From the IMG/VR virus record IMGVR_UViG_3300042465_005116, positions 64,001-128,000 of that record: DNA of 64,000 nucleotides. The stretch is one strand, 5' to 3'. A program made the position numbers and the translations under genes. Each line of letters begins with the position of its first letter. Position 1 is the stretch's first letter. Shown here piece by piece: positions 3,733 to 57,813 of the stretch. The notes beneath the pieces were generated by a model. That model ran no database searches and had not been told where the DNA came from. It saw nothing but the letters and a program-made list of their open reading frames with translations. The DNA is from a virus. Taxonomy: Duplodnaviria; Caudoviricetes.

Positions 3733-6700
3733 TACTTATTCTCTTTTAACTCGTTAATTTCTTTTTTCAATTCCTTAATACACTCAACTAATAAGGGTAC
3801 AATTTTTTCGTATTTGATAGCAAGGTATCCATCTACTCTTTTTACCACAACCTCGGGTAAAATTGTTTCTACTTGTTGAGCAATTAAACCTACATCGTGT
3901 TTTCTTATAAAGTAATTATCTTCGCCCTTACCACCACTTTCTTTTTGAATATATTCATCTGTCCAATCAAATTCTACCCCATCTAATTTTTCTATTTTAT
4001 CAAGAGCTTTTCCTATTGGTATAATATTTTCTTTTAATCTTTTATCTGAAGTAGCGAATGCAGTTATATTTCCGGTAGCAGTAATACCACCACCAACTGC
4101 AACGAAATTAGTATTTGCCTCATTTCTTTCAACTTTAAGATATCTATCAGTACTTGCTACAACTTGGAAACCACCCGCAACTAATTCAGTTTTCGATACT
4201 TGTTGTGATACCGATATAGTACTTATCTTTGGAGTGTTATAAGAGACACTAACATCAAAAGTTGCAACTGTTCCTGAATCACGATACGCAACACATACTC
4301 CATTTTTAATATAAGGTACAAAATAATATGTTGTACTTGGTGATAATGAAATAGCCCCGGTTAAAGTACCAAACGCATCACCGCTGGCCCAACCAAATTG
4401 CTCTTCTATGATAGTGTTACCATATCCAAATACCTCTGAAAAATTTATTGCTTTCGATATATCTAAAACTTCATTAGCTATACCTGTACCACCCGCTCTA
4501 ACGGAAATCCCTATGGTATAGTAGTGTTGTACATAACTTATATAAGGAGTATTTCCCCCAAATGGTTGATTACCCGGTTCTAAATATACACTATAATTTG
4601 AAAGTACCCCATGCCATAAATTTGTACTTATGGAATAAATTCCAGTAGTCCCAGCACTTGTAGTAAAACTAGGTGATGAACCAGGAGTCCATTCTAAATA
4701 TGTTGGGTCCATATTAGCAGATATTTGTGTAACATATTGGGAAGTGTTACCAGCATATTGTTGCTGAGTATTATAATTTGTTACTGAAGTTGGACTTATT
4801 GTTACACTACCGGCACTTAAACTACTCAATGTAGAGGCGTTACTTATATCTACCCTTAATGCAGTACCCTCATAAATTTCAATAGCAGGTCTTGCTGCGT
4901 TTAATCTTAATTTTTCAGTTGAATCTCGTATACTTGTAGGAGTTACAGTCCAACCCCCAATGTTACCGGTGGTAGCCGAAACTCTACCAGTAATATCCGC
5001 ACCGGTTGCAAACAATATACCGGCATTAGTTACCCTAAACGGGGCATTACCAAATGTAGCATTTCCTAACCACATTCCATTACTATCTGCTTTAAAAATA
5101 GTATTTGAACTACCAATTGAAATTGCTCCGGTACTATCTAATATTGCTGCTCCACCTGTTAAAGTGGTTGCACCCAATGTCCACCCACCAATAGTACCAG
5201 AAGTTGCTTTTAAAACTCCCGCGGGTGTTACACTAAATTCTGCACTTCCAAATGTTTCATTACCTAAATAAATTCCACTAGTATCCGCAGTAAATACACT
5301 TTCACCACTACCAATTCGAATAGAACCATTAAACGTTCCTGTTGCTGCGGATAATGCACCACTAAACGTTCCTCCACCATTAACAGTTAAAGATGTTCCA
5401 TCCCATAATAGGGAATTACTAGCAGATTTTAAAGACAATCTATATACGGGTGAACTACTAACATTAACCACCCCCATAAAAATACCATTTACATTATACC
5501 CTTGTGAACCGGCTGATGAACTTTGTCCGATAGATATGTACGGATAGGCACTGCCACCTGCTAAAGTAATATTTGCTGCTGCCATTGCACCATTCGAATT
5601 CGTACCAATGTTTAAAGTGTTTTGAACAAACGAATCTTCAAATATACCTATTTTAGCTGCAACAAAGAAATCTTGTGCACCTAACGATATCCAACCCGTT
5701 TGTGCTGCTTGATGTGGTGCACCATTTATTACGTTTCCTGTTGCTGAAAGATGTTGTCTAGTAGTTGCGTAGTATGTATTATACGGAGCGTTTCCATTTG
5801 TACTCCATAAGACAGTATCTCTTCTACCAGTCCCCGTTGTTAACCCATCTGAAAATTGATAGGTTCTACCACTTGTCCAAACTCCGGTATGAACCACACC
5901 AGGACCTGTTTGACCCGTTGCACCATCATCTCCATCAGTTCCATCAGTTCCATCAGTTCCATCAGTTCCATCAGTTCCGTTAATTGTTACATTTACTTTA
6001 TGTTCTTTAGTTATTGTACCGGTAGTTCCTTCCGAATTTACATATGTTATAGTAATAGCTACAGTCGTACCTGCATCGGTAGTTGGTGTGGTTGGTGTTA
6101 TAGTTGTAGTTCCCGTTCCACCTGTTAATGAAATTTGATATGTATTTATTGCACCACCAGTTGAATATGTATAATTTGTTCCACCTTCGTTTACACTAAT
6201 TGTAAATGTAGCAGGTGTAGCATATACCCCAGCGTTTGTTTTTGTAATCGATTGACCTTCATTTGATAACGTTGCAATTACTACCGGTGCAGCTTTTTTA
6301 ACTTTTGATAAACTTAATGTATCAGTTAGAGTTCTACTTGTCCCTTCAGAATCCGTAACTACTGCTGATATTGCTATTGTTGTAGAATTTGTTCCCGCTG
6401 CTAAAGTTTTTCCATTTAACGTTACCAACCCACTTGCAGCAGTAGTTGATATTGATGTAATATCTGAAGATGTTGCAGTTAACGATGTTATTGTTTTTGT
6501 TGTAGTAGAACCATTATAAGTTTCCCTTACAACTATTGTTGAATTTGCAAATGAATCAATTTGTGCACCGGTTGATTTAGCAGTTACACTTTGGTCTTTT
6601 GGTGTTGCAGAAATTGCAAGAACCGGAGCAGCTTTTTTATTTTTTGTATAAGTTGCAGTTTTTATAACACTTGTGGTATCTCCGGCACCATCTTTATAAT

Positions 6701-9386: not shown

Positions 9387-9557
9387 ATGAACAAATATAC
9401 GACAATTCAAATAAAAAAAGATACCCATGCACTTCTACAAGAATATTGTAGAGAACACGGGTATACGTTAAGTGGGTTGGTAGACTCGTTAATTAAACAA
9501 AGAATTAACAAACCTAAACCAACCAATATATTAGCGGTTAAAACTTTACATAGCTAA
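9387..9557 (+). CDS. Ribbon-helix-helix (CopG/Arc-like) DNA-binding protein, 56 aa; only plus-strand gene found
   Basis: Manual translation MNKYTTIQIKKDTHALLQEYCREHGYTLSGLVDSLIKQRINKPKPTNILAVKTLHS: beta strand then two helices with a Gly turn; fills the gap between tail fibre and SbcCD genes. Confidence 0.7.
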   Translation: MNKYTTIQIKKDTHALLQEYCREHGYTLSGLVDSLIKQRINKPKPTNILAVKTLHS

Positions 9558-12500
9558 ATCCATTTGTTTTTTTAATTTCTATTAAACCATCCACCACATC
9601 TCTCATTGAGTCGATATGGGATATAATCATTACAAAATCAAATTGTGTCTTCAAATAAGTGAATAACATGAATAGGGATTGTAGGTTCTCACTATCTAAT
9701 GTTCCGAACCCTTCATCTATAACTAGGAAGTTAGGACGAGGAAGGTTACATACGTTGATTAAAGCCACCCTAATTGCAAGTCCAGAGATAAACCTCTCCA
9801 TACCACTACACATCTCCAAAGACCACTTATTATCCCCGTATACGAGGTAAGCGTTGATGTTTTTACCATCCATCTCTAATTGCATTCCAAACTCAACAAT
9901 TTGTGCCAAAATGTTATTAACCTCACCCTCAATCATTGGTAAAGATTTTTCAATCAATTCATATGATACCCCATCTTTATTTAGGGCGTTAAGATAATAT
10001 TCGTATAATTTCGATTGTTCCTCTAAATCCTTAACCTCTTTGATTTTATCCTCTAAGGTATCTCTTTGCGATTGTAGGGATGAAACTCTACCATTTAATT
10101 CTAATAACTTTTTATTTGTTTTTGTAAATAAAATTTTATTAGCATCTAAGGTTTCTCTTACAATTTTGATTTCTTCTCTGATTTCACCATTCTTTTTGAT
10201 TTGTTCTTCGTTCTTGTAATACTCATCAATTAGTTTAATTTGTTCGGCAATTTGTGTTTGAACTCTAATTTCTTCAGTTTCGGATGTTGATAACTTGTTA
10301 ATAAGTGAAGAAATTTCTCTATCAATTTTAACTTCTTTCTCCTTTGTATCGGTTAAATTAGTCCAATCCGTCTCATATTGGGTCAATGATGTAATCTTCA
10401 ACTCTAACGCCTCCTTTGTATTATTTGCAGTAACAATGAATCCATTTACTTCAATTAATGTTTTTTCTACATCATCTTTACTTTGTAGGATTGTTTCCGA
10501 ATTTTCCATACAAATATTACAATCTGGGTTATATTTGTGTAAATCCAAATGTTCTTTTTTATCAACTAACGATGTATGCCAAATCCCTAATTTATCTAAT
10601 TCGTGTTTAGTATTACCTAAATCCGTTTTAGCAACTCCTAGTTCCTTTATCTTTGTTTCTAACTCATCTTCATTAAAACCATCAATTATTTCTTCTAATT
10701 GTAATTGTAAAGCCTCTAACTTACCAATACGGTCTTGCGTAGCATTTTTAGTATCTAATACCTCAGTCTCCTTATCAGTAAGAATTTTCTTTCTTTTTTC
10801 TAATTCCTCTATTCCAATATTATCTGAGTTTAATTTTACAATTTTACCATTCAAACGAATTAAATCTTTATTTAAGGATTCCTCTTCAGTTTTAATTCCA
10901 CCCAATTCAATATCAACTAATTTGTATTCATTTGTTGATTCGGTCAATTGAGTTTTGATATCGGCTAACTTAGAAGTAAAATCATCAGATTTGAATTTTT
11001 TGATTAAAGTAGCATTATCTCTATTCTCATCTGCGGCAACTGTATATAATTTATCAAAAATATCTACGCCAATAAATTGAGAAAGTATCTCTTTTCTTTC
11101 TGATTGTGATTTATCGATGAATAGTGCGTTATTACCTTGTAGGGAAAGGGATGTTAGAACAAAATCCTCAAATTTACCTAAATATCTTTCAATATTTTTA
11201 TTAGTATCCCTTCGTTGTTCACCATTTAATGATGTAGTAACTCCGGCATCTTCTTTCCAAAAGTTTACGTTTACTGAAAGGTTTGTTCCCTTACGAGTCC
11301 ACCTTGCACTACGTTCAATGAAGTAATCCACTCCATCAATTTCAAAATTAAATTTACAATAGAAATTATCTTTTTGATTATTTAGGATATTTTTTGATGA
11401 TGAACTTCTTGATGTTTTATCAAAGATACAAAATGAAAGGGCATCAAAAAGAGATGATTTACCACTTGCATTCGGTGCAAATATACCTATCACTCCCTGT
11501 GCGTTTTCAAATCTAACTTTGTTACCTTCACCATATGAGAACATATTTGAGAACTCTAAAGTCTTAGGCACCCAAAGAATATTTTCAGCCAATTCTGAAT
11601 CATCAATTCGGTGATTAATCTCCTTATTGATTTCAGAAATTTTATCTAAATCAGAATCCTCTAATAGAAATTGTCTTTCTAAATAATCTCTAATCAATTG
11701 ATTTTGAAAAGTTTCATCTTTTACATTACCAACAATATTTTTGTTTAATTTTGAATTTGTTTTTAATTGACCAATAGTATCCGTTCTTGTGACTGTTACC
11801 TCTGCTACATTAAATAATTCTTTAAGTTCGGTAATACGCAACTTCATTTCTGATGCTTCGGTATTAGTGAATCTTAATCTTAAACGTGGGTTCTTAGGTA
11901 ATTTTGTATCAATCTCATCATATACCCATTGTGGTATCTGTCCGTTGACTACATCAATTGTAAGGAATCCATAATCATTATGAAGATGGTGTTCGGTAAA
12001 TGTACGAGTTGGAACATCCCATAATAAATACCCGTGATTCTCCAACATCTCTCCGTGATTTTGTTGAACCATTGAACCTGCATATGCTACGTGTTCCCAT
12101 CCTTCACCAAATGTTTGACGTTTGTGGATATCACCTAACATTGCCATATCAAATCCTTCAAACATATCGACGGTGAAAGAATTTGATGATACTACATACC
12201 CAATATCAGTTTGTGCTTTATTTACCGGCCCGTGGAAAAGACAGATTTTGTTTTCCCCTTCAATATCTTTCGCCAACGGCCAATTTTCCTTCTTATCCAA
12301 TATGGAATAAACAACAAAAGTAATATTATTGTAATTGTAGACACCAGTATCGCGGAGATAATGGATGTGAGGATTATTAAGATTATCGATAATAGGCGTA
12401 AGAACATCTAATCTATGGTTATTGTTTAAGTTACAATCATGGTTACCTGTTATTAAGAAAGTTTCCCTTAGTTTTGAACATTCTGTTAAGAACCAACTAA

Positions 12501-12693
12501 TCTCCCTAATAAGTTCAGGAGACATTTCAGTTTTAGCATGTGCAATATCCCCTGCTAAATAAATAATAGAATCTTGAATTTTATCGTCTTCTACTTGTTT
12601 TAAAAACTTTTTGAATACCTCTTTGTATTCTTTGTGTCTTTGCAAATTTCTAATGTGTAAATCTGCTAAGTGATATATTTTGTTAATAATCAT
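9538..12693 (-). CDS. sbcCD: Fused SbcD/Mre11 nuclease - SbcC/Rad50 ATPase (T4 gp47-gp46-like)
   Basis: Metallophosphoesterase motifs DLH, GD, GNHD, HG, GDIH; Walker A APNASGKSS; long coiled coil with central CNIC hook; signature CSGMERF; Walker B IDEGFG; H-loop ISH. Confidence 0.92.
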   Translation of the reverse strand: MIINKIYHLADLHIRNLQRHKEYKEVFKKFLKQVEDDKIQDSIIYLAGDIAHAKTEMSPELIREISWFLTECSKLRETFLITGNHDCNLNNNHRLDVLTPIIDNLNNPHIHYLRDTGVYNYNNITFVVYSILDKKENWPLAKDIEGENKICLFHGPVNKAQTDIGYVVSSNSFTVDMFEGFDMAMLGDIHKRQTFGEGWEHVAYAGSMVQQNHGEMLENHGYLLWDVPTRTFTEHHLHNDYGFLTIDVVNGQIPQWVYDEIDTKLPKNPRLRLRFTNTEASEMKLRITELKELFNVAEVTVTRTDTIGQLKTNSKLNKNIVGNVKDETFQNQLIRDYLERQFLLEDSDLDKISEINKEINHRIDDSELAENILWVPKTLEFSNMFSYGEGNKVRFENAQGVIGIFAPNASGKSSLFDALSFCIFDKTSRSSSSKNILNNQKDNFYCKFNFEIDGVDYFIERSARWTRKGTNLSVNVNFWKEDAGVTTSLNGEQRRDTNKNIERYLGKFEDFVLTSLSLQGNNALFIDKSQSERKEILSQFIGVDIFDKLYTVAADENRDNATLIKKFKSDDFTSKLADIKTQLTESTNEYKLVDIELGGIKTEEESLNKDLIRLNGKIVKLNSDNIGIEELEKRKKILTDKETEVLDTKNATQDRIGKLEALQLQLEEIIDGFNEDELETKIKELGVAKTDLGNTKHELDKLGIWHTSLVDKKEHLDLHKYNPDCNICMENSETILQSKDDVEKTLIEVNGFIVTANNTKEALELKITSLTQYETDWTNLTDTKEKEVKIDREISSLINKLSTSETEEIRVQTQIAEQIKLIDEYYKNEEQIKKNGEIREEIKIVRETLDANKILFTKTNKKLLELNGRVSSLQSQRDTLEDKIKEVKDLEEQSKLYEYYLNALNKDGVSYELIEKSLPMIEGEVNNILAQIVEFGMQLEMDGKNINAYLVYGDNKWSLEMCSGMERFISGLAIRVALINVCNLPRPNFLVIDEGFGTLDSENLQSLFMLFTYLKTQFDFVMIISHIDSMRDVVDGLIEIKKTNGFSYVKF

Positions 12694-30271: not shown

Positions 30272-30352
30272 TTTAAAAATATTTGTTAACTTACTATAAA
30301 TATATGTTTTGAGTATTTTGCATTTTTATAAAGGATTTTAACCTAATTTATA

Positions 30353-40142: not shown

Positions 40143-41300
40143 TTAATTACTTAGGGGTGCTTTAATTTTTGGATGAGATTCATATCCTATTAATTCAAAA
40201 CAATCAGGTCTATAACTTTTAAGTTTTTCATCTAAAGTTTTTTCACCTAATCTTTCTTTAACCAACTGATGTTGATACCAATTCCTTTCCGTTATTTGAA
40301 TTTTTGGTAAGTTATACGGGGTTCTACTGATTTGTTCTTTTGCCTGTTCAATATGGTTTTTATATAAATGAACATCTCCTAAGTTTCCAATCAATTCATC
40401 AGGTATCATATTCACTTCCTTTGCAATAATCTCTAATAGTAATCCATAAGAAGCAATGTTAAATGGTAATCCTAAAAATGTATCCACACTTCTTTGATTC
40501 CACATTAGGGATAGTGTCCTCTTTGGTGTTGGAGTATAATATGAATTATCAAAATCAGGTAAATTATTAGGGTCAAAGAATCGTTCCATACCTGTTTCAT
40601 AATTGTTATTGAACCAAATATTATATCGTCTCTCATCACTTAACTCATGTGTATACAATTGAAATCCATAATGACAAGGTGGTAATACCATTTGGTCTAA
40701 TTCACCTACATTCCAAGCATTAACCATTAATCTTCTACTATCTGGATTTGTTTTAAGTTCGTTGATTAGGTTTTCAATTTGGTCTATTGGTTCTTGTCTT
40801 ATACTTGTTTGATTATCTACATAAGAATCCCATCTTAAATATTCCCATTTTGAACCTAATTTGCAAGGTTCTATTTGTATTCTACCACCCCACTGTCTCC
40901 ATTGTTTACCATAGATAGGTCCTAAATCTCCCCATTGTTTAGCAAACTCATTATTGGTTTTGACCTCTTTGATAAATTCTTCTTTTGTAAGTTGTCCATC
41001 TACATCCATTGATGTTTTGGCTGCATAGTTTTTATACGCATCACCATCCCAAATATGGCAATCATAATCCAATAGGAATTTGATGTTAGTATCACCTCTT
41101 AAAAACCATAGGAGTTCGGTTACGATAGAGTTCCAATGCATCTTCTTTGTAGTAAGTAAAGGAAATCCTTCACTCATCTTATGACGTATCTGATGACCAA
41201 ATTCTGATATAGTACCAGTTCCGGTTCTATCTTTTTTCTCTACACCAAACGCAATGATATCACTAAGTAATTGTTGATACTTTTTATCTAAGGTATTCAT
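40143..41300 (-). CDS. thyA: Thymidylate synthase
   Basis: DRTGTGT, FPLLTTKK, ELLWFLRG, LGPIYGKQWR, SRRLMV, LPPCHY, QRSVDTFLGLPFNIASY, GDVHLY. Confidence 0.96.
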   Translation of the reverse strand: MNTLDKKYQQLLSDIIAFGVEKKDRTGTGTISEFGHQIRHKMSEGFPLLTTKKMHWNSIVTELLWFLRGDTNIKFLLDYDCHIWDGDAYKNYAAKTSMDVDGQLTKEEFIKEVKTNNEFAKQWGDLGPIYGKQWRQWGGRIQIEPCKLGSKWEYLRWDSYVDNQTSIRQEPIDQIENLINELKTNPDSRRLMVNAWNVGELDQMVLPPCHYGFQLYTHELSDERRYNIWFNNNYETGMERFFDPNNLPDFDNSYYTPTPKRTLSLMWNQRSVDTFLGLPFNIASYGLLLEIIAKEVNMIPDELIGNLGDVHLYKNHIEQAKEQISRTPYNLPKIQITERNWYQHQLVKERLGEKTLDEKLKSYRPDCFELIGYESHPKIKAPLSN

Positions 41301-47948: not shown

Positions 47949-48605
47949 TTAAATAAGTTTTGATTTAGTAATCAATTCTGAATAAGGTTTCCAATTATCT
48001 CCTTTTCTAATTATTGAATAGGGTTTCCAATTCACTCCCATTTGAATATATTGTAACTCTGCATTACATCTATTTGTAATATCAACATTACTTATGTCTA
48101 TTGTTTTAGCGTATTGTCCAGTCATCCACCAAAAATTACCAGAGTACATTATATTTGTAGGGTTACTTGCTACTTCTAATAAAAAACCATATGTGTTAAA
48201 AACTTCATTATCCAAAATTCCAAATACGTTATCAATATATTGAATATTATGTAATTGCATTACATTTCTCCATCGGATAGATTCAGAATCGGTTTGTTTA
48301 GATGCCCCCTTTGTGTGTAGATAAAAAATATAATCATTATTATTAAATGATGATTTATCTCTTTCTATTAAATTTAAAGTTACAAACTCATTATTCATTA
48401 ATTTAGTATCACCAATTATAATTTTTGAATCATACTCATACATTAATTTGATTATATCGTCTACTGAATTATTATTTTCTGATATTGAGATGCCAATAGT
48501 TAATGAGTATGGTTGATTAATATATTTTTTTATTAATGCAAGTTGTTCATGTATTATAGATTCAACCCCCTCTATTGCATAGATGTGATAATATATCCGT
48601 ATCAT
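47949..48605 (-). CDS. Glycosyltransferase-like hypothetical protein
   Basis: IYYHI, FYLHTKG, YSGNFWW pattern seen in GT-A-like phage proteins. Confidence 0.45.
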   Translation of the reverse strand: MIRIYYHIYAIEGVESIIHEQLALIKKYINQPYSLTIGISISENNNSVDDIIKLMYEYDSKIIIGDTKLMNNEFVTLNLIERDKSSFNNNDYIFYLHTKGASKQTDSESIRWRNVMQLHNIQYIDNVFGILDNEVFNTYGFLLEVASNPTNIMYSGNFWWMTGQYAKTIDISNVDITNRCNAELQYIQMGVNWKPYSIIRKGDNWKPYSELITKSKLI

Positions 48606-49648
48606 ATTAAATTCGTATGGGTAGTATCAATAAATTCGTATAGGTTATGAAATAGATTTGTATTTCTACCTATCTTATTAAATTCTTTTTTAAATAATTC
48701 ATGTTCTGGGTGATTAGAATCCCAAACTTGTTTTAATTTAAATTCCGCTTCAGAAAATGTTCCCCAATTAGTTATTTTACCAAAAAAAACATTTACCTTT
48801 TTGCCAAAAATAGAATACATTATATTATAAAAGGTTTCCATTTCCATATAGTTACTATCTTGAACAACAAACGAAGTCTTTACCGATTTTAATGTTTTTA
48901 TTGTAGAAATAAAATTTAAATTATTTATTAAAGTATCCCATTTACCACCTAATCTGGTTTTATTTTCATAGGTGTCACGTGTTCCGGCATCTATTGATAT
49001 CTCACAAGATGTTACATACTTATGCACATTTGGCATACTATCCCACATTTCTTTTGTCCACATTGATGCGTTTGTGTGGAAATGTATTCTTGTTAATTTT
49101 GGATATTTTTTTGGATTAAAATTTCTTAAATAATTTCTAAAACTAACCGAAACAAATGGGTCGCCTGTCCCCGTGATGTACAAAGTTTTAACGTTTGCTG
49201 AATAGTAGGTATCAATTTCATCTATTGTTTTTTCTATTCGTTCTATTCCTTTACTGCTTTCAACAATTAAATCTACTCTGCACGATGGACATTTATAATT
49301 ACAAGTCCTATCAAAATTCATTATAACATTAGTCGGTGTATTTGGTTCAACGATTGGAGTTGTATACTTTGAATTTGATTTTAAAGTAATTGGACCAGAT
49401 ACTACACTATCTGATAATAATTTACTTAAATATGGACATAATTCTTTGTTACAATATTTAAATGAACCATCTAATATAGAATTTCTAATATCAATGATTG
49501 GTTCACTATTATATACATCTTTTAAAGGATACTCACTAAGTTCTATTTTATTTGGCAACCAGGATGGACAACAAACAAACCCAACATTATTATGTATTTC
49601 TAAAGTAGTAAATGGAGTACTACAGGTGTATTGTTTTAAATCTATCAT
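48602..49648 (-). CDS. Radical SAM enzyme with N-terminal SPASM/twitch-like Cys cluster
   Basis: CNYKCPSC (CxxxCxxC), TGTGDPF, HTN, ISIDAG; extra Cys motifs CSTPF, VCC, CNKELCP. Confidence 0.88.
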   Translation of the reverse strand: MIDLKQYTCSTPFTTLEIHNNVGFVCCPSWLPNKIELSEYPLKDVYNSEPIIDIRNSILDGSFKYCNKELCPYLSKLLSDSVVSGPITLKSNSKYTTPIVEPNTPTNVIMNFDRTCNYKCPSCRVDLIVESSKGIERIEKTIDEIDTYYSANVKTLYITGTGDPFVSVSFRNYLRNFNPKKYPKLTRIHFHTNASMWTKEMWDSMPNVHKYVTSCEISIDAGTRDTYENKTRLGGKWDTLINNLNFISTIKTLKSVKTSFVVQDSNYMEMETFYNIMYSIFGKKVNVFFGKITNWGTFSEAEFKLKQVWDSNHPEHELFKKEFNKIGRNTNLFHNLYEFIDTTHTNLI

Positions 49649-50139
49649 AATAATTTTTCGATATTACTTCTACTTCCCTTGCGTAATCTATCTGAATGGG
49701 TTCTATCATATATATCTTCGTAATAAGTAATTGGTATATTAAGTTTAAATGCCAATTCGTTCAAATCATTATTCCATTTTAAAATATCATTATAACATAA
49801 TTCAAATATATCAGACGGAACTTCTTCGTAGTAATATGGATTATTTGAATTATAGTTTTTTGTTTTTGAAAAATAAGTTTGGTATGCATGAGATTCTGCA
49901 CATTCTAATATATTTTTTCTAGATAATAATATTACTCTATCGAACTCCTTACTTAATTGAAAATTGTTTGGATGATGACATATTATTGTTTTGAGGATTA
50001 CATTCTTTTCACCATTATATTGAACTCTACCACTTCCATCAAATGGTTCAAATAACGGAGTTAATCCATTTTCTTTTGCTAATTTATGTAACAAAGAAGT
50101 CGAACCGGTTCTGGGTAATGCAATTATTAATATACTCAT
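49645..50139 (-). CDS. Short sulfotransferase-like (P-loop) protein
   Basis: IIALPRTGSTSL, LFEPF, ILLSRKN..AES, YYEDI. Confidence 0.65.
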   Translation of the reverse strand: MSILIIALPRTGSTSLLHKLAKENGLTPLFEPFDGSGRVQYNGEKNVILKTIICHHPNNFQLSKEFDRVILLSRKNILECAESHAYQTYFSKTKNYNSNNPYYYEEVPSDIFELCYNDILKWNNDLNELAFKLNIPITYYEDIYDRTHSDRLRKGSRSNIEKLL

Positions 50140-50654
50140 ATGATATTAAATTTTGCTTTCTTTTTAGAAAACCATATTATCAATACATCTCGTTCCCCAC
50201 TAATTATCTTTTTTACCTCGTGGGATTCACTACCGCCGTTAAACACAACATAATCTCCTTCATTTTTTAATGATACGTTTTTATCATTTATATACATTTC
50301 ACCACCTGTAAAATCAGATGATAATAGGATACTAATCGTCTTATGTGTTGTAAATCTATCTTTATGTTTTTTAGCATAACCATTTTCACCATATATCAAT
50401 CTATGCATTATATATAAGTTATCAATTGGTTCTTCAAATTTATTACAAATAAATTCATTTAAATTTTTATTTTCTAAAGTATATACCCAACTATTATTTG
50501 GAAAAAGAGAAACACCTTCATCTTTTTTAAGATGGGTTGCAAAATACAATTGAGGGTGGGATGCTTTTATGTATGCTAAGTCTTCCTCATTCATTATTCT
50601 AGTAGTACTTAATTCTGATTTTAAAAAAAGTAAATCTTCTGTTGATAATTTCAT
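50136..50654 (-). CDS. 2OG-Fe(II) oxygenase
   Basis: HKD, FTGGE, HEVKKIISGERDVLIIW. Confidence 0.82.
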   Translation of the reverse strand: MKLSTEDLLFLKSELSTTRIMNEEDLAYIKASHPQLYFATHLKKDEGVSLFPNNSWVYTLENKNLNEFICNKFEEPIDNLYIMHRLIYGENGYAKKHKDRFTTHKTISILLSSDFTGGEMYINDKNVSLKNEGDYVVFNGGSESHEVKKIISGERDVLIIWFSKKKAKFNII

Positions 50655-51283
50655 ATAAGTTTATTTTTTTTATTTTCAAATTCTACAACCAATTCGTCTA
50701 TATTTAAAAATTGGTGGAGTTTAAGATAAAAATCATAACAACCTTTTGAACCGGGATGCCAATCTATCGGGTCACCACCTTCATCTGCTATAGAAGTTAC
50801 TTTTATTAATTCTACAAACTCCTTTGTCTTTTCATAAAAATCATCGTTCCATGTTACAAAGATTGGTTCATATTTTTTATAAAAATATTTTAATTTTTTA
50901 ATAAATAATATTTCAGAATCCCTATCCCCATTATGCCAATGTTCAGTTTCTTTGACCCTTAGTTCTAATAGTTTTTTAGCAAACGATTTATCACTATACC
51001 ATTCCCAATTTAAATATTTTAAGTTGTGATTTGTATCTCTTTCCCCAAAATATCTTCGTGGGAATCTGCCGGGTGCGGTAAATACTATAACTAATCTATC
51101 GCCTTCTACATAATTTGGTATATTTCCAGTTTGATATAATATAGAATTATTGTCAGACCCAAATTTTCCCAATTTAATAACATTATAATGATTAGATAAA
51201 TAATCTGTCCAATGTATTTCTGGTAAATCCCAATCTACAAAACTATCACCACAAATGTATATGTTATTTTTTTTATTTGACAC
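50651..51283 (-). CDS. SGNH/GDSL-like protein
   Basis: CGDSF, GSDN, C-terminal DWHPG. Confidence 0.6.
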   Translation of the reverse strand: MSNKKNNIYICGDSFVDWDLPEIHWTDYLSNHYNVIKLGKFGSDNNSILYQTGNIPNYVEGDRLVIVFTAPGRFPRRYFGERDTNHNLKYLNWEWYSDKSFAKKLLELRVKETEHWHNGDRDSEILFIKKLKYFYKKYEPIFVTWNDDFYEKTKEFVELIKVTSIADEGGDPIDWHPGSKGCYDFYLKLHQFLNIDELVVEFENKKNKLI

Positions 51284-51813
51284 TATATAATAGTTTTATT
51301 TGTTGGGCTATTTCCTTTTCTTAATCGGCCGGGCCCATTTAAATCAAATATATCTTCGTAATATGTTATAGGTATATTAATACTTTTAGAAATAAATTCT
51401 AAATCAGTATGATACGAAAGAACTTGTTCATATCTCCATTGGTCATGTGGAGTAGTCTTCCAAAGATAATTTTCATAAAACATAAATTTTTTCATATCAT
51501 GATAATAATTTAAATAAGCCCAACTTTCTCCACACGCTTTTAAATCTTTTCTTGATAATAAAATAACTTCATCAAATTCTTTTGTTAAATTTATTAACCA
51601 CTCAATCCTATCTTCTTGTTTAATTTCATCCAAACTTTGAAAAACAAGTGTTTTAACTACAATATTATTTTCGTTAGAATTATATCTTTCAATACCAATG
51701 CTTAGTGGATTAAATGGTTCAAATAAATATTTTTTTATATTGTATTTTTTTCTCATCGTTTCCCCTAAACTCGTAGAACCTGTTCTCGGTAATGCAATTA
51801 TTAAAATTTTCAT
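51283..51813 (-). CDS. Short sulfotransferase-like protein, paralogue of 49645..50139
   Basis: IIALPRTGSTSL, LFEPFN, ILLSRKD, ITYYEDI, RLRKG. Confidence 0.65.
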   Translation of the reverse strand: MKILIIALPRTGSTSLGETMRKKYNIKKYLFEPFNPLSIGIERYNSNENNIVVKTLVFQSLDEIKQEDRIEWLINLTKEFDEVILLSRKDLKACGESWAYLNYYHDMKKFMFYENYLWKTTPHDQWRYEQVLSYHTDLEFISKSINIPITYYEDIFDLNGPGRLRKGNSPTNKTII

Positions 51814-52376
51814 AACAATGTTTTATTAGATTTTAATTTAGGATAATCAAAATCAGTTTCCGTCATCCAAATATTTAATGCGTAACGCGTACCACTTACA
51901 ACTGGTAGTACTCCATGATAAGTAGTCGAACCATTAAATGATATGGAATCTCCTAATTTCAAATCGGATAGTGTTAATCCATTTAATGTTTCAAAATGAT
52001 AAGGAGGATTCACATCTTCGGTTAAAGCAAATTGACCCCCTTCAAAATTATCAGAAAGAACAATTACTGTGGTTAATTCACTTGATTTATCCTTATGTAG
52101 ATTAAGATATCTACCATCATAATATGAAGTTAGACTGATATTAAAATTCTTTAAATTAAATGATAGGTAATCAAACCATAATTTAAAGTTTCCGTTTTTA
52201 TAATTATCGGTTAATAAATTAATTATTCTTTTTTTAAATTCTTCATCATACATTCTTCTACAATCCCAATGTTCGGTTGGACTATATGAAAAGGGTTCAC
52301 CAAATTTAAGACAAAAATCAATTATATCATTGGCAGTTTCTCTATTACAAAAATTATTATTTATGGTATAATTCAT
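51810..52376 (-). CDS. 2OG-Fe(II) oxygenase
   Basis: LHKD, FEGGQF, HGVLPVVSGTRYALNIW. Confidence 0.85.
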   Translation of the reverse strand: MNYTINNNFCNRETANDIIDFCLKFGEPFSYSPTEHWDCRRMYDEEFKKRIINLLTDNYKNGNFKLWFDYLSFNLKNFNISLTSYYDGRYLNLHKDKSSELTTVIVLSDNFEGGQFALTEDVNPPYHFETLNGLTLSDLKLGDSISFNGSTTYHGVLPVVSGTRYALNIWMTETDFDYPKLKSNKTLL

Positions 52377-53194
52377 AATAGATGCGAATTTTTTGGTTTA
52401 GTATGTGTTAATAAATTACCTTCACTTATAAATTTATATAATTCATCGGCAATTAATTTATATCCATTATTACTTGGATGTTTACCTGCGGTAGTACTTA
52501 TCCAATTATTACCATCCTCCCATACATCTTTTCTATTGGTATCAATTAATAAATTTGCCATTGTTTTAGTTTGATAACCCCAATATTTATCACTCTCGAT
52601 TAAATTGGTTTTATCAACTAACTTATGAATATTTTTATTAATCATTATATCAAACGCGTCACAAAAAAGATATCTGATTCCTAATTCTTTAAATATAAAT
52701 TGAAGATGTAAAATATAGTTTTGATTCACTATATCATAGTAAGTATCATTGAATAAATTACCTATGTAATAATCTCTAAAATTTTTTTCCGCCCTATTAT
52801 AGTTTATATTATCACTATTAACTCCATCAAAAATATACTTTAAAAGGTGTTCTTTACTTTTATATCGTTTGCCCCATATAAAAAAATCATCTTTGGTTGG
52901 GAAAAAAGGTAACGGGTCTCTTAGAGAAGATGACCACATAATAACAACAAAATCATCTTGAGTGATGATTTCATTTTTTAACTGATAAGATACTGCGTTA
53001 AATATTGCATTATTTGAGAATGCACCAACTCCATTATTTTTAACTTCACATTTTAATAGTTCTGATAAGTGTTTCGGCCAACAATATTTTTGTCTTATTA
53101 TTGTCCTTTGTTCTGGATTATCAGTAGTATATTCATCTTCAATATTTCCACCAACCCCCTCAGTCCAACTATCCCCAAAGGTAAACAATTTCAT
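52373..53194 (-). CDS. SGNH/GDSL-like protein
   Basis: FGDSWTEG, NNGVGAFSN, C-terminal KHPSNNGY. Confidence 0.65.
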   Translation of the reverse strand: MKLFTFGDSWTEGVGGNIEDEYTTDNPEQRTIIRQKYCWPKHLSELLKCEVKNNGVGAFSNNAIFNAVSYQLKNEIITQDDFVVIMWSSSLRDPLPFFPTKDDFFIWGKRYKSKEHLLKYIFDGVNSDNINYNRAEKNFRDYYIGNLFNDTYYDIVNQNYILHLQFIFKELGIRYLFCDAFDIMINKNIHKLVDKTNLIESDKYWGYQTKTMANLLIDTNRKDVWEDGNNWISTTAGKHPSNNGYKLIADELYKFISEGNLLTHTKPKNSHLL

Positions 53195-53205
53195 AATGCA
53201 TAATA

Positions 53206-53349
53206 TTAAAGATGTGTTTCTTTAATTTTAGCTACAACTGCTTGAAATGCAGATGCTATTTTTGTTTTAACATCGGTTGATAAAGAACCAATAACCGGTT
53301 TAATAACGGTAAGTGGTCTTTCTTCTTTAATTTTTGGTGTCTTTGCCAT
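53206..53349 (-). CDS. 47-aa basic amphipathic peptide (absent from ORF track)
   Basis: MAKTPKIKEERPLTVIKPVIGSLSTDVKTKIASAFQAVVAKIKETHL fills the gap after the ATP-grasp-Hint gene. Confidence 0.65.
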   Translation of the reverse strand: MAKTPKIKEERPLTVIKPVIGSLSTDVKTKIASAFQAVVAKIKETHL

Positions 53350-53379
53350 AATATTTTTTTATTTTAATTTTTATTTTAA

Positions 53380-54867
53380 TTAAAGTTTAGGTGGGAGCCC
53401 TTGATTACAAACCGGACACCAGCTACTACAAGGACCAGACCCGCAATAATAACTACCACATCCCCAACAACCATTATGCATCACACTAAATACTCCATCT
53501 CCTATATCCGCTAAAAATAAATCACCTGGTTCAAAGTCTAATGAATATATTGTTTTATATTCAAACACCATTTCTAATCCAGTAATTTCAATGGTTGTTA
53601 ATTCATTTGTATTTATATCGGTTACAACTAATTTATCGCCAATATATAAACTATTTACTTTTTCAAATCTAGTTGCGGTTGAATCTTTTTCTTCAATATA
53701 ATACACACATGATGGAGTATCACTCCAAGTTTTACCATCTGCAAGTGTTATCTGTATCATTACCGTTTCAACTGATGCAGATACCATTGCCGTTAATTCG
53801 GATTGTAATGATGTTAAGGTATCGTTTGATTGCTGTAGTGTACTATCCCATCCATATGTCACTATTTCATTTGTAAAAGCTTTAGCTTCATTTTCATTTG
53901 AATCTATAAAATTTATAGAACGAACATGGTCACCTAATTGTATAGTACTAACATTTGTTAATGAACCATCATAGTTTAGGATATTTGAATCATCATCGGT
54001 ATGGTAATCGTTCTCAGTTTTACCTATTTCCTTTGTAATATATTTATATCTTGTTTTTTGATTTAATTTTTTGGTGCCAGTAACAAATTCATCAGCGGTA
54101 AACGAAACTGGTATTATTGAAGATTGAGTGTATCCACCCATATTAATAATATCTAAATTTGAACCATATATAATATCAATTCCTCTTATAATTGAGTATC
54201 TACCGTCTACCAAATTATCCTCTGAAAATATGAATTCTTGTATTAAATAATTACTTTCCGTTAAATTTATGGTATCAACTAATTCAGTATTATTTGAAAC
54301 TGTATATAATGCAGGATATTGTGTTTTATCGTACTGAGGATAACGATATTTTATTAATATGTTTGGATTTGTGGTAGTAGTATAATCTACTTCATCTAAT
54401 GTATTTAAATTTAATGTATCAGATGTATAATTCGTTTTTGGAATATACCCCGAATCTTTCATTAAATTAAAAAATTCAAATTTATCAGCACAATACGTTT
54501 CATCCACTAATGCGGTTGTATCAAACGCCTGTCTTAAAATAAATTTAGTATCAGTATCTTCTATAAATGGTACAGTAACCGAACCTTGCGGTACAGCATG
54601 GTCAATATATGTTATATTATTTTCTACACATTTTTCTTGTAATATTTTTTTAAATCTATTTGGTTGATTTAAGGGTTTGTGTGAATCGCCTTCTGTCCAT
54701 ATATAATGGAACTCAGTAATATTATTACTACTTAACATATTGAATAACGTAGTATAATCTAATAAATCTGCACCATCATTATAAATTGTGGTATTTGTGT
54801 TTATTTCTAAAAACTTAACCGAATTATTTTTTTGTAGATAATCACTACCAATTATTGTTGCTTTCAT
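53380..54867 (-). CDS. Circularly permuted ATP-grasp-like ligase fused to a Hint-like domain and a 30-aa six-Cys C-terminal peptide
   Basis: N-terminal GSDY..VKFLEINTN, YIPKT, ILIKY, YLIQEFI (ATP-grasp elements); ILNYDGS...IQLGDHVRS...IYSLDFEPGDLFLA...VMHN (Hint blocks); tail GCWGCGSYYCGSGPCSSWCPVCNQGLPPKL. Confidence 0.68.
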   Translation of the reverse strand: MKATIIGSDYLQKNNSVKFLEINTNTTIYNDGADLLDYTTLFNMLSSNNITEFHYIWTEGDSHKPLNQPNRFKKILQEKCVENNITYIDHAVPQGSVTVPFIEDTDTKFILRQAFDTTALVDETYCADKFEFFNLMKDSGYIPKTNYTSDTLNLNTLDEVDYTTTTNPNILIKYRYPQYDKTQYPALYTVSNNTELVDTINLTESNYLIQEFIFSEDNLVDGRYSIIRGIDIIYGSNLDIINMGGYTQSSIIPVSFTADEFVTGTKKLNQKTRYKYITKEIGKTENDYHTDDDSNILNYDGSLTNVSTIQLGDHVRSINFIDSNENEAKAFTNEIVTYGWDSTLQQSNDTLTSLQSELTAMVSASVETVMIQITLADGKTWSDTPSCVYYIEEKDSTATRFEKVNSLYIGDKLVVTDINTNELTTIEITGLEMVFEYKTIYSLDFEPGDLFLADIGDGVFSVMHNGCWGCGSYYCGSGPCSSWCPVCNQGLPPKL

Positions 54868-54931
54868 AAATATTTTATTTATTTCTTCTGAATGTATCTA
54901 TAAATATATTAAAATTGAATTTAAGACCATT

Positions 54932-55234
54932 TTAAATGATGGTGGGATTTTTTTTAATTTCTAGAGGTTCTAAATAGTTAGAATCAACTTCATTCCATTT
55001 TTTTAATCCACATGCATTATAAGTTGTTGAAAATACTTTTTTATTCAATGGACACCCACATTCACCACAATATGCACTCCATTTTATTCCCTTTATTACT
55101 TCCTTTCTATAATCACATCCTAAACAAACATCAAGTCTTAATTTAGCTAATTCCTCTTGTTGAATATTTGGGTTGTATGAAATTTTCCAAGCTTCAAATA
55201 TTTCTTTATAATTAATCTTAGGTATAAGGGGCAT
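54932..55234 (-). CDS. Small Cys-rich putative metal-binding protein
   Basis: CLGC, CGECGC, CGLKKW. Confidence 0.65.
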   Translation of the reverse strand: MPLIPKINYKEIFEAWKISYNPNIQQEELAKLRLDVCLGCDYRKEVIKGIKWSAYCGECGCPLNKKVFSTTYNACGLKKWNEVDSNYLEPLEIKKNPTII

Positions 55235-55235
55235 A

Positions 55236-55973
55236 TTATATTAATGTTTTATTATTTTTTTGAATATCGTAATAATCATAAATATCGTTATATTTTTTTA
55301 TAAACTCATCATTTAATTTTAATTCACATTCAAAGTGTTGACTTCCGTTTGATTTTTCCATTTTAAATGGTTTACCGGTTTTATTAGATACCCATTCCTC
55401 TAATTCTCCAAAATTTCCAAATTCAAACCATTTTATTCTTTTGTTATTATTATGCCAATATGATACCGGCCGGAATAAAATTAATAAAATATTTTCCATA
55501 TAATCATCAACATACTTTTCTATTCCATTTCTTTTTGTAAATTCTTTAATTACTAACATTTGAGAAGTTGGTGAGATTAAATCTAAATCTTTAAAAAATA
55601 ATATATCATCTATATTTAATTTTTTAAGTACATTTACTAATTCGGTTGGATATTTTATACGTTCCATTTCGACCAAATCAATTATATGTTTCCACAATGA
55701 AATGAATCGTTCATATCTATTTCTTTTAATTGTTATAATGTCATATTCATTTCCAAATTTGGTAATCAAACCATTTAATGATTCATGACTATGTACCATA
55801 TAATCGGCCAACTCCTCATTACTCATAGATAAATCTATTCTACTCTTCCATTTATTAATGAATTTTTGGTCAAGATATTTTATATCAAATTCACTTCTTA
55901 AACATGATATATAAAAAGAAGTTGATGCACATCTTGGTAATGAAATAAATAAAAATTTATTCTCTACTAACAC
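55236..55973 (-). CDS. Sulfotransferase family protein
   Basis: FISLPRCASTS, KRNRYERFISLW. Confidence 0.7.
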   Translation of the reverse strand: MLVENKFLFISLPRCASTSFYISCLRSEFDIKYLDQKFINKWKSRIDLSMSNEELADYMVHSHESLNGLITKFGNEYDIITIKRNRYERFISLWKHIIDLVEMERIKYPTELVNVLKKLNIDDILFFKDLDLISPTSQMLVIKEFTKRNGIEKYVDDYMENILLILFRPVSYWHNNNKRIKWFEFGNFGELEEWVSNKTGKPFKMEKSNGSQHFECELKLNDEFIKKYNDIYDYYDIQKNNKTLI

Positions 55974-56611
55974 TATATTAACGATTTTTGGTTTTTAATA
56001 AAATCAAATCCAACATTACCTGCCATAACAATTCTATCTAACGTTGAATTTGATGCAGCATTTGGAGAATGTGGAACATCTGCCTTCATTATAATTAAAT
56101 CATCTTCTTCTGGTCTTATCCAATATTCCTTATCTTCTTTTGATTTAAAATATAAAACACCGTCATCACCATTCATTATATCTGGCATTTGAATGTAATA
56201 AACGTATGTATAGTGTGGAATAAAGTCTTTATTTTTTTTATTAATTTCGGTATGTATATGATATTTTTCATCAGTATAAAAATTTTCTTGTACAGGATTT
56301 TTAGAACGAACTACATTTACCCAAGCATCTGTATTAATCTTATTATAATTTATACCGATTTCATTATAAATTTCTTTACATTTATTAATACCAATTTGAA
56401 CAATTTCATCCAATTTTGTTTCTACCTTAATATCACCAATAAAATTTAAATGTTCATTCCATTCTTTTTTATAACCAAACCCATCAGTTTTAACATTAGG
56501 CTGGGATTCTATAATAGAATATGCCTCTTTTAAAAACAATTGTTTATCACTTATTCGATTTAATTTTACTTTCCAAATATAAGTTGTCTCATCAAAAAAT
56601 ATCTTTTCCAT
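55973..56611 (-). CDS. 2OG-Fe(II)-like double-stranded beta-helix protein
   Basis: AWVN, HIHTE, YTYVYYIQMP, HSP, RIVMAGN. Confidence 0.65.
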   Translation of the reverse strand: MEKIFFDETTYIWKVKLNRISDKQLFLKEAYSIIESQPNVKTDGFGYKKEWNEHLNFIGDIKVETKLDEIVQIGINKCKEIYNEIGINYNKINTDAWVNVVRSKNPVQENFYTDEKYHIHTEINKKNKDFIPHYTYVYYIQMPDIMNGDDGVLYFKSKEDKEYWIRPEEDDLIIMKADVPHSPNAASNSTLDRIVMAGNVGFDFIKNQKSLI

Positions 56612-56617
56612 ATTATA

Positions 56618-57253
56618 TTAATTTAGTTTTTTATAAAATATATCAGCTAATTCTTTATGACCTACTTCAGAAAAATGGGCATCGTTAATTACGCCATTAG
56701 TTTCATCTTGTAATCTATTTAATAAAGTTCCCACATACCAATCTGTTGGTAGTAATTGTTTTTTAAGATGAACATCAGTACATAAAGCAAAGGGTGACCA
56801 AAAAATAACTTTAATGCCTTTTAATTTAAATATAGTACTAAGTAATTTAGACCAATTAACTATTTCATCCCAATATAACCTACTCATCCTATTAATCCGA
56901 ATTTGCTCTAATGTATTTGTATCAATAAATTTATGTAATTCTAATTCAGATTGTACATGTCGAATAGTAACCCATTTGTTATTTTTTTCTAATCGAAATC
57001 GGGAAGGATGTGACCAACCTATTATAACAATATCACCACTATTTATCGTGTCCATTTTAGTAATAATAGTGTCAAATATAGTATTATTATCTGCACCTCC
57101 AACACCTAGTTGAATAACATCAGTATTTAACATGATTGCTAAATGGTCTGAAAATATTTTTGGGGTATAACCTTTCCATTCACTATATTGTTTACCCAAC
57201 CCACCTTGTTTTTCCCATGTTGTGGAAAATGAATCACCAAATACCCAAATCAT
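56618..57253 (-). CDS. SGNH/GDSL-like protein
   Basis: FGDSF, GVGGADN, IIGWSHPSR, DAHFSEVGH. Confidence 0.65.
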   Translation of the reverse strand: MIWVFGDSFSTTWEKQGGLGKQYSEWKGYTPKIFSDHLAIMLNTDVIQLGVGGADNNTIFDTIITKMDTINSGDIVIIGWSHPSRFRLEKNNKWVTIRHVQSELELHKFIDTNTLEQIRINRMSRLYWDEIVNWSKLLSTIFKLKGIKVIFWSPFALCTDVHLKKQLLPTDWYVGTLLNRLQDETNGVINDAHFSEVGHKELADIFYKKLN

Positions 57254-57813
57254 AAAAGATTTTGTTTTGTTGAATTAGTTTTAACTAATGATATCCAATT
57301 TACTAATGAATATCTAATGCCGGCTCTGATGGGAGTTACCCTATGTGTTAATCTCGAATTAAAAATATATAATGTTCCAATTTTATTTTCTATTGGTACT
57401 AACTCACCTTTAAGGTTTTTAATTTCTAATACACCACCTTCATATGAATTATTTAATTGAATTACTATCGATGTAAATCTATCTCTATATATAGTATCGG
57501 TACTATCGACATGCCAATCAAAATATTCACCTTCTTTATATTCAGTAAATTGAAAATCTCCCAAACCAGTAACTTCCATTCCATTTATATTGAAAGTTTC
57601 TCTTAATTTATTTGTTAATCTTTCATTTAAAAATCCTAAATCAGATATCCAAGCAACCGATGATTTTCTAGTTTTTTTAGTAGGTATGGTATTAGAATCA
57701 CCGGTATATACTTCTGCATCTGATAATGTTAATTCTTTTTTGCAATTATTTAAAATGAAATCACACTCTTCGGGTGATAGAAAGTTTTCAAATATGTCTA
57801 TATTGTCAATCAT
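57250..57813 (-). CDS. 2OG-Fe(II) oxygenase (PKHD-type)
   Basis: QFTEY..GEYFDWHVD, YEGGVL, HRVTPIRAGIRYSLVNW. Confidence 0.88.
   Translation of the reverse strand: MIDNIDIFENFLSPEECDFILNNCKKELTLSDAEVYTGDSNTIPTKKTRKSSVAWISDLGFLNERLTNKLRETFNINGMEVTGLGDFQFTEYKEGEYFDWHVDSTDTIYRDRFTSIVIQLNNSYEGGVLEIKNLKGELVPIENKIGTLYIFNSRLTHRVTPIRAGIRYSLVNWISLVKTNSTKQNLL

Follow-up and report, generated by a model that had tools for sequence, protein, structure and literature searches.

Hint domains are known to release toxins, to lipidate Hedgehog and to conjugate ubiquitin-like proteins. The BIL domains among them cleave rather than splice and have no nucleophile at the +1 position, and in the BUBL locus a ubiquitin-like cargo is set between two BIL domains. 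Here we analyzed a gene located at positions 53380 to 54867, on the minus strand, of a 64,000-nucleotide stretch of viral DNA (positions 64,001 to 128,000 of the IMG/VR record IMGVR_UViG_3300042465_005116; hereafter the window), whose product carries a predicted ATP-grasp amide ligase domain, a Hint domain and a C-terminal tail with six Cys residues. The reading that we favour, and in which our confidence is evenly balanced, is that this protein would be a self-processing carrier: judging from conservation and predicted structure, its Hint domain would release a variable six-Cys peptide, and its apparently intact ligase would act on products of the same gene cassette. Each part is known already; the combination of ligase, Hint and variable peptide was found described nowhere, and the literature on ATP-grasp, Hint and Cys-peptide fusions, on PT-HINT in phages and on BUBL gave no account of such a layout.

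Several described systems share part of this organization. The best sequence identity of the phage Hint is to BIL2 of the Tetrahymena BUBL locus (6tmm; 22%, Z 16.5), and a C. thermocellum BIL (2lwy) aligns with a Z of 16.4. Long-form relatives of the phage protein mirror the BIL-cargo-BIL order with a Hint-cargo-Hint order. Unlike the BIL proteins, the phage Hint has no Cys1, its cargo is a Cys-rich 30-mer with no ubiquitin fold, and an ATP-grasp domain stands in front of it. PT-HINT proteins (PF07591) likewise place a Hint directly before a variable C-terminal module that is thought to be released, and their allele replacement is also confined to the C-terminal end; the phage protein differs in having no PF07591 match, in lacking a toxin domain and an N-terminal part of the RHS or filamentous kind, and in standing next to no immunity gene that co-varies with it. 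Peptides made on the ribosome and modified afterwards (RiPPs) such as graspetides and microviridins, SCIFF peptides and ranthipeptides have in common with our locus a ribosomal peptide with a Cys framework, tailoring-type enzymes and a protease function that frees the core. In the phage protein, however, precursor, protease and ligase would reside on one polypeptide with no leader peptide; the ligase is of the GspS type and not of the RimK type, the tail has no Asp or Glu as a graspetide would, and the radical SAM enzyme encoded nearby lacks the SPASM domain of SCIFF and ranthipeptide systems. Finally, arrays of dioxygenase, halogenase and sulfotransferase genes have been described in cyanophages, with peptide modification predicted and no substrate named (Iyer et al. 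2010, PMC2938197). Our locus shares with these arrays its tandem 2-oxoglutarate (2OG)-Fe(II) oxygenases and sulfotransferases and, in relatives, Trp-halogenase-like and APS-kinase genes, with the difference that a candidate peptide substrate is here encoded inside the array.

One gene for a ligase, a Hint domain and a Cys-rich tail

The coding sequence and the parts of its product are listed below, by position in the window, with the AlphaFold2 (AF2) scores of the model.

53380..54867, minus strand: whole coding sequence of the ligase-Hint-Cys-rich tail fusion, 495 aa plus stop; AF2 pLDDT 91, pTM 0.84
54022..54867, minus strand: residues 1-282, predicted circularly permuted ATP-grasp amide ligase of the GspS/YgiC/eukaryotic glutathione synthetase type (VIA-align, conservation, motif alignment)
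53473..54003, minus strand: residues 289-465, Hint domain (Foldseek, VIA-align, hidden Markov model)
53473..53478, minus strand: His464-Asn465 codons, predicted scissile junction with the cut after Asn465 (conservation)
53383..53472, minus strand: residues 466-495, six-Cys tail C-x2-C-x4-C-x4-C-x3-C-x2-C, ending Pro-Pro-Lys-Leu

A preliminary description made from the letters of the window had given this reading frame, its 495-aa product and the six-Cys tail formed by the last 30 residues exactly as we find them. In a collection of 5.8 billion proteins, 570 homologues were retrieved at E<=1e-3, the best 120 of which are 65-99% identical to the protein and 491-501 aa long. Exhaustive HMMER searching gathered the family into 318 clusters at 50% identity, 152 loci of IMG/VR carry a family gene on contigs that reach 333 kb, and codon alignments of 51 distinct genes from related loci gave a dN/dS of about 0.21 for the gene body. 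These homologues, clusters and loci, together with the dN/dS value, establish that 53380-54867 is a real gene. Its product has no match in Pfam or PHROGs, tblastn with the whole protein, with its C-terminal half and with the window reference found no match in 50,697 deposited phage records, and none of 185,579 scanned prokaryote genomes yielded a relative. Two proteins, A0A2E0BTD6 (afdb_clusters, 473 aa) and A0A1C3NFC6 (a viral protein of BFVD, 506 aa), align over most of the two-domain model and may be distant family members in deposited records.

The Hint domain and its remaining chemistry

The AF2 model was built on a 123-sequence alignment reaching down to 20% identity. Besides the two BIL structures, residues 286-467 of the model matched the Hedgehog Hint (1at0) and the NpuDnaB intein (4o1r), both with a Z of 16.8 (Foldseek, VIA-align), and a hidden Markov model (HMM) of the canonical second Hints found in relatives of the protein detected the same region with an E-value of 5e-4. 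The Hint-like region that had been proposed at 54003-53473 is thus a Hint fold covering residues 289-465 (Z 16-17), and the structural check suggested at the time, AlphaFold and Foldseek on both regions, found the ATP-grasp as well as the Hint fold.

Aligning Sonic hedgehog residues 199-363 to residues 290-465 makes His289 position 1 of the domain; across the 123 sequences this column holds H, K, G, I, S or L and never Cys. The position of the block-B His in canonical Hints is occupied by Cys387, in a column (S51 T20 A14 C11 N9) that is never His. Within residues 286-465 the highest Cys column reaches only 11/123, the block-F Cys of class 3 inteins (WCT triad) is not conserved, and residue 449, assigned to block F by position only, is Asp or His. 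Position +1, occupied by A, P, G, V, S, Y or I, offers no nucleophile, and a conserved Cys stands instead at +2 in 75/123. What persists is the end of the domain: His464 in 117/123 sequences, Asn465 in 122/123, and an invariant junction in 121 close homologues. Of the class 1 features, a Cys, Ser or Thr at position 1, a block-B TxxH and a +1 nucleophile are thus missing, and the terminal His-Asn is present. These losses exclude class 1, class 2 and class 3 splicing, and, with only His-Asn kept, cyclisation of Asn465 with a cut after it appears to be the sole Hint reaction left. Fold, terminal Asn and a variable, non-spliced C-terminal module together suggest a C-terminal-cleaving, BIL-like or PT-HINT-like domain. 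The preliminary description had read position 1 as His and the terminal His-Asn as kept, and had stated that in such Hints N-terminal cleavage is impossible and release of the C-extein is not; both statements agree with the residue pattern, in which every N-terminal element is gone.

The tail is a fast-turning Cys-framework peptide

The tail is rich in Trp, Tyr, Gly and Pro, and residues 469-495 are the only disordered part of the AF2 model. Across the 121 close homologues its Cys columns are invariant, six Cys being present in 120; the framework C-x1-C-x4-C-x3-C-x4-C-x2-C occurs in 105 and the variant of the window in eight. Non-Cys tail positions have an entropy of 1.64 bits compared with 0.80 in the body, and Trp makes up 10% of tail residues compared with 0.7% of the body. 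A peptide that varies while its Cys spacing is kept, the pattern to be sought in homologues according to the preliminary description, is therefore what this set displays. The absence of Asp and Glu, which 46 of the 121 do carry to some extent, excludes the classical graspetide cross-links in the peptide of the window, as had been argued, and the type of the ligase points the same way.

To compare more distant members, we used 113 representatives at 50% identity, of which 66 end in short Cys-rich tails of 21-119 aa. The number of Cys is even in all 66 (binomial p 2.7e-20), mostly 6 or 8 and also 4, 10, 12 or 16. Such even counts argue for pairwise use of the Cys, disulfides being the simplest reading and a Zn(Cys)4 site a poor fit; metal binding by the CxxC pairs, one of the options raised earlier, accounts less well for counts that are always even. 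A Lys is found within the last four residues of 78/113 representatives, where about 20% would be expected.

Tail and body are both under purifying selection, the pooled tail dN/dS of 0.27 being close to the body value, which indicates that the peptide is functional. The tail nevertheless diverges very locally. In pairs with a body dS of 0.05-0.07, the share of differing tail sites is 44-63% for synonymous and 9-17% for non-synonymous ones, and in sliding windows identity falls to 56-80% only over the tail-coding stretch of some 100 nt, from about −130 to 0 nt relative to the stop codon, against 97-100% upstream. After the tail, identity in the next gene is back at 93-100% in three of five close pairs. 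The differences comprise whole-codon replacements, indels and synonymous sites and involve all bases. Such a pattern resembles the replacement of alleles, or a selected hot spot confined to this place, and not drift. The same local divergence is seen in an independent sample, since a 693-nt freshwater metatranscriptome contig aligns with the downstream 47-aa gene and with the Hint-coding part and not with the segment between them (53349-53443, tail coding plus spacer).

Two sources of this variation were considered and rejected. Wholesale shuffling of tails between distant backbones is countered, as a rule, by tail identity tracking body identity overall (Spearman 0.63). A diversity-generating retroelement or silent cassette finds no template repeat, copy of the tail DNA or second open reading frame (ORF) with a Cys framework in the window, and the changes are not confined to adenines; a reverse transcriptase was looked for among the scanned ORFs.

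Architectures following the ligase-Hint unit in relatives

The 113 representatives fall into five classes according to what follows the conserved unit of about 460 aa formed by ligase and Hint.

Cys-rich tail: 66 representatives
Almost nothing after the Hint: 8 representatives
Second canonical Hint (Cys1, TxxH, HN), either directly or after a 6- or 8-Cys peptide: 21 representatives
Cys-rich stretch plus Peptidase_S74 self-cleaving chaperone: 8 representatives
Other long extensions: 10 representatives

Whenever a Cys-rich segment is present, the first Hint lies on its N-terminal side and its C-terminal side is the natural end of the protein, a canonical Hint or a Peptidase_S74 chaperone; six relatives hold the peptide between the His-Asn end of the first Hint and Cys1 of the second. 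A segment always bounded by self-cleaving modules or by the natural C-terminus is what a cargo destined for release would lead one to expect. Relaxation of the penultimate His is limited to the class whose tail has at most 12 residues (Tyr in 3/8), again the pattern expected if His-Asn serves cargo release, with the reservation that the numbers are small.

The second Hints (P0124, P0126, P0130, P0132, P0133, P0135 and 15 others) are always followed by Lys, in endings such as K, KK, KF, KKF or KL, and Lys also ends the short tails. Two readings fit: insertion of a BIL-type element just ahead of the terminal Lys, or a Lys amine that accepts the Hint thioester.

A predicted permuted ATP-grasp ligase in front of the Hint

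VIA-align superposed residues 1-282 over their full length on YgiC (7uka, Z 10.2) and GspS (2io7, Z 9.2), and the eukaryotic glutathione synthetases 5oeu, 2wyo and 3kaj (Z 8.5-8.9) and trypanothione synthetase also matched the whole domain, while RimK, ArgX and TTLL aligned only from about residue 50 (Z 5.6-6.5). Because the match is full-length to permuted ATP-grasps and partial to classical ones, we assign the domain to the permuted type, as the preliminary description had done. Residues 9-35 (Asp9 ... Glu21-x-Asn23) can be aligned with the Mg-site motif that classical ATP-grasps carry towards their C-terminus, at about residue 290 of 480 in biotin-carboxylase-type enzymes and about 290 of 334 in D-Ala-D-Ala ligase; the motif matches are weak in E-value, and all five are ATP-grasps at the same motif. 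In the 123-sequence alignment E21, N23, R112 and D122 never vary, and 90% or more of the sequences retain D9, K173 and R228, K173 being assigned as the ATP-binding Lys by position only. No match was obtained to the Pfam models GSP_synth and GSH_synth_ATP, and a profile of close homologues run against PDB sequences returned nothing useful (E 0.6-3). Fold and conservation nonetheless point to a permuted ATP-grasp ligase, still catalytically intact, at the N-terminus.

The domain thus shares with YgiC/YjfC, GspS/trypanothione synthetase and the eukaryotic glutathione synthetases the permuted fold across its whole length and an acidic-x11-E-x-N Mg-site motif ahead of the ATP-binding Lys. It differs from them in lacking their first 90-145 residues or so and any sequence-level family match, and in being fused to a Hint and a peptide. 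YgiC and YjfC have been reported to be peptide-spermidine ligases (Pederick et al. 2023, as cited in PMC12568646), and enzymes of this group join the C-terminal carboxylate of a peptide to an amine.

All seven of the residues named above are retained in each of the five C-terminal classes of relatives, which suggests that the ligase is active everywhere, independently of the Cys-rich peptide.

Genomic neighbourhood

Gene order was compared over 85 related loci.

54932..55234, minus strand: upstream partner, 100 aa with six invariant Cys (CxxC ... CxxCxC ... C), probably Zn-binding; directly upstream in 78/81 loci with room; Atlas lead DUF6171
53206..53349, minus strand: downstream partner, 47 aa, ending His-Leu; directly downstream in 77/83 loci
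47949..57813, minus strand: tailoring-type enzyme island with four 2OG-Fe(II) oxygenases, three sulfotransferase-like, three SGNH/GDSL-like and one radical SAM
48602-49648, minus strand: radical SAM enzyme with Cx3Cx2C, Pfam score under the gathering threshold, 3.7 kb from the ligase-Hint gene
54898-54909, minus strand: promoter-like motif ATATATTTATAG, 31 nt upstream of the ATG

The usual order is 2OG oxygenase, sulfotransferase-like gene, Cys protein, ligase-Hint gene, 47-aa gene, SGNH/DUF6071, 2OG oxygenase and sulfotransferase-like gene, and an ORF of 45-51 aa occupies the downstream position even in distant relatives. A C-terminal tag [K/N/Q]-x(1-3)-[L/I]-[L/I] terminates 12 of 15 island genes as compared with 6 of 46 genes elsewhere in the window. 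The tagged genes encode unrelated folds, and the ligase-Hint protein itself ends Lys-Leu. Many island genes overlap the next start by 4 nt, an arrangement that does not by itself force Leu or Ile.

The enzyme previously described as radical SAM/SPASM is indeed a radical SAM protein by its Cx3Cx2C motif and does not carry SPASM: five further Cys lie in its N-terminal 71 residues and none in its C-terminal half, and, from this distribution, its auxiliary cluster or substrate-binding part, if any, would be N-terminal. The gene is present in 23/85 related loci, and one distant relative has two such genes directly upstream of the ligase-Hint gene. As for the late motif that had been placed at 54899, ATATATTTATAG is exact at 54898-54909; one other exact copy lies at 30294-30305 and copies with one mismatch precede other genes, the total being not above chance.

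Relatives also carry Trp-halogenase-like, APS kinase, radical SAM and methyltransferase genes nearby. Flavoenzymes of the Trp-halogenase family, in one locus with APS kinase, were located near the cassette at 4831-7608 of locus L001, at 7752-9002 and 16985-18535 of L003 and at 1220-2446 of L004, and the island of the window itself has no Pfam match to Trp-halogenase or APS kinase. The tails are unusually rich in Trp and have a conserved Cys-Trp-Cys start.

A proposed self-processing carrier and its alternatives

In the mechanism that we propose, the gene would make a self-processing carrier protein whose Hint, acting through His464-Asn465, cyclises Asn465 and frees the last 30 residues with a new amino terminus. 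The freed peptide would be the variable cargo: its six Cys would pair, most likely as three disulfides once outside the reducing cytoplasm, and its other positions would be exchanged or diversified between near-identical phages. The ligase would most likely act on the cassette's own products, with the C-terminus of the released peptide (Lys-Leu), the 47-aa partner or the tagged island enzymes as candidate carboxylates, and a polyamine, a Lys side chain or the new N-terminus as candidate amines. Judging from the residue patterns, self-release of a pairwise cross-linked, variable peptide is likely. That the fused ligase acts on this peptide is plausible: the chemistry of its relatives and the persistence of the fusion fit, the latter arguing, over 318 clusters, for a functional link between ligase and Hint, while the tail-less relatives weaken it. 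The biological role is probably one of conflict or recognition, because of the allele turnover.

Several observations weigh against the carrier. The chief one concerns the ligase acting on its own tail, as its residues are equally invariant where the tail has only 7-12 residues, and another substrate is thus possible. Sequence and predicted structure carry the whole case for cleavage, the residue at +1 varies, with Pro in 14/123 sequences, and the model leaves the tail disordered; nor does the protein have a signal peptide that would bring the tail to a site of disulfide formation. Synteny, seen mainly among related phages, may be a matter of shared ancestry, and transcription of the gene family is weakly supported by metatranscriptome contigs that are 88-93% identical to the gene, these being relatives from one library that may hold carried-over DNA. 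The observations of the preliminary description thus stand in full and its interpretation in part: it had seen enzyme, protease and precursor in one protein, and the three modules are real, while their joint action is unproven and the ligase is invariant in near-tail-less relatives.

The organization itself is of interest because a Hint apparently reduced to Asn cyclisation sits between an amide ligase and a fast-turning Cys-framework peptide, in a layout shared by hundreds of large, uncultured phages of fresh water. Release of the peptide would mean that phages make small disulfide-type peptides with neither a protease nor a leader, and if the ligase acts on it, the arrangement would follow a new logic of biosynthesis and provide a compact tool for cyclic or conjugated peptides. 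The tail would also be the first candidate substrate for the long-unexplained phage arrays of dioxygenase, sulfotransferase and halogenase-like genes, and the turnover of alleles at this one place speaks for a role in an arms race or in recognition.

The alternative that survives best, although we consider it unlikely, is that the Hint only frees a variable C-terminal toxin, signal or receptor ligand, as in PT-HINT toxins, and that the ATP-grasp is a mere carrier with an unrelated job, for example on a glutathione- or polyamine-type small molecule or in modifying another protein. The Atlas look-alikes of the protein are viral PT-HINT clusters and its afdb_clusters matches include Pretoxin HINT and RHS proteins, allele turnover is limited to the tail-coding region, ligase residues are invariant even with a tiny tail, and relatives of the ligase fold act on small molecules (glutathione, spermidine). 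Such a view does not readily explain why the ligase-Hint fusion persists over 318 clusters at 50% identity, and it meets with no known toxin fold, no N-terminal trafficking domain, no PF07591 match and, in three of five close pairs, a 47-aa gene that does not change along with the tail as an immunity gene would.

Somewhat more doubtful is an extension of the carrier into a one-chain peptide factory, in which the ligase, or in some relatives a second Hint by way of a thioester, would close or conjugate a cystine-knotted peptide, giving a hypervariable product for phage-phage or phage-host recognition. This product could be a head-to-tail cycle, or a peptide tag on the C-terminally tagged island enzymes or on a polyamine. 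If true, the factory would open a new way of obtaining processed peptides, with engineered intein cyclisation as its artificial equivalent.

Taken by itself, head-to-tail closure, in which the fused ATP-grasp joins the C-terminal carboxylate of the peptide to its new N-terminal amine to give a cyclic, cystine-stabilised peptide, seems improbable. The Hint cut would yield the free amine, and GspS/YgiC-type ligases use peptide C-terminal carboxylates; in the six relatives with a peptide between two Hints, the second would activate the same carboxylate as a thioester, and Hint-peptide-Hint is the layout of engineered intein cyclisation, represented among the fold matches by 5ol6. Yet cyclisation, which the preliminary description had listed, finds no specific support: the +1 residue is no nucleophile, the ligase is present with or without a second Hint and also without a Cys-rich peptide, the conserved C-terminal Lys is left unexplained, and loop sizes are unlike those of cyclotides.

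We judge it equally improbable that no cleavage takes place and that the tail remains attached for good, serving as a metal-binding or redox knot or as an autoinhibitory or regulatory part of the ligase, with the Hint only as a scaffold. CxxC-like pairs are present, the six Cys could form a Zn2Cys6-type site, and the Hint packs firmly on the ligase (pTM 0.84). Conversely, His-Asn is near-invariant while the other Hint catalytic positions drift, Cys numbers are always even and not multiples of 3 or 4, the tail is aromatic-rich, hypervariable and predicted to be disordered, and relatives bound the same segment with a second self-cleaving module.

A SCIFF- or ranthipeptide-like pathway in which the radical SAM enzyme of the island turns the six Cys into thioethers, as the preliminary description had envisaged, appears highly improbable: the gene does occur in the island and in some related loci, twice upstream in one, but it is absent from most of them, its product has no C-terminal SPASM Cys cluster, scores below the Pfam gathering threshold and is encoded 3.7 kb away, and thioethers to non-Cys partners need no even Cys count. 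True splicing of ligase to tail by a class 2 or class 3 type intein, for which the KlbA (class 2) and class 3 inteins among the fold matches might speak, can be practically dismissed given the missing +1 nucleophile with a conserved Cys at +2, the lack of a conserved Cys (at most 11/123) or block-B His inside the Hint, and an ATP-grasp fold that is complete before the Hint starts.

The phage and other genes of the window

The window comes from a large uncultured myovirus encoding a baseplate wedge protein, a Peptidase_S74 tail fibre, a primase, ThyA and a carbamoyltransferase. Its helicase has its nearest matches in Bacteroidota and crAss-like phages (34-38%), and DNA of the window is present in lake-water metagenomes from at least 12 studies. 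These helicase affinities and the lake-water occurrence ruled out a marine T4-like cyanophage, to which hsp20, carbamoyltransferase and the 2OG arrays had pointed.

The window contains the other Hint to which the preliminary description had aligned the one studied here.

2113-3732, minus strand: second Hint protein, directly downstream of the Peptidase_S74 tail-fibre gene

In its product, extended Pro-Thr/Pro-Ala linkers and modules that contain Cys precede a fully canonical Hint with Cys1, a block B of the TxxH type and the terminal His-Asn, after which come Arg and seven further residues. There is no +1 nucleophile, so we regard this Hint as BIL-like. The protein matches the HMM of the relatives' second Hints with an E-value of 1e-22 and, weakly, a PHROG of virion structural proteins.

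No Hint was found in ThyA or in a fused Mre11-Rad50-like gene of the window. ThyA (40143-41300, minus strand) has 385 aa against a Pfam profile of 266 positions, that is, insertions of about 120 aa, with no intein motifs in the translation. The fused gene (9538-12693, minus strand) is a 1051-aa ORF whose N-terminal part shows Mre11/SbcD-like metallophosphoesterase motifs and in which a Rad50/SbcC-like SMC ATPase starts at about residue 378; in T4-like phages these two parts are usually separate genes, gp47 and gp46.

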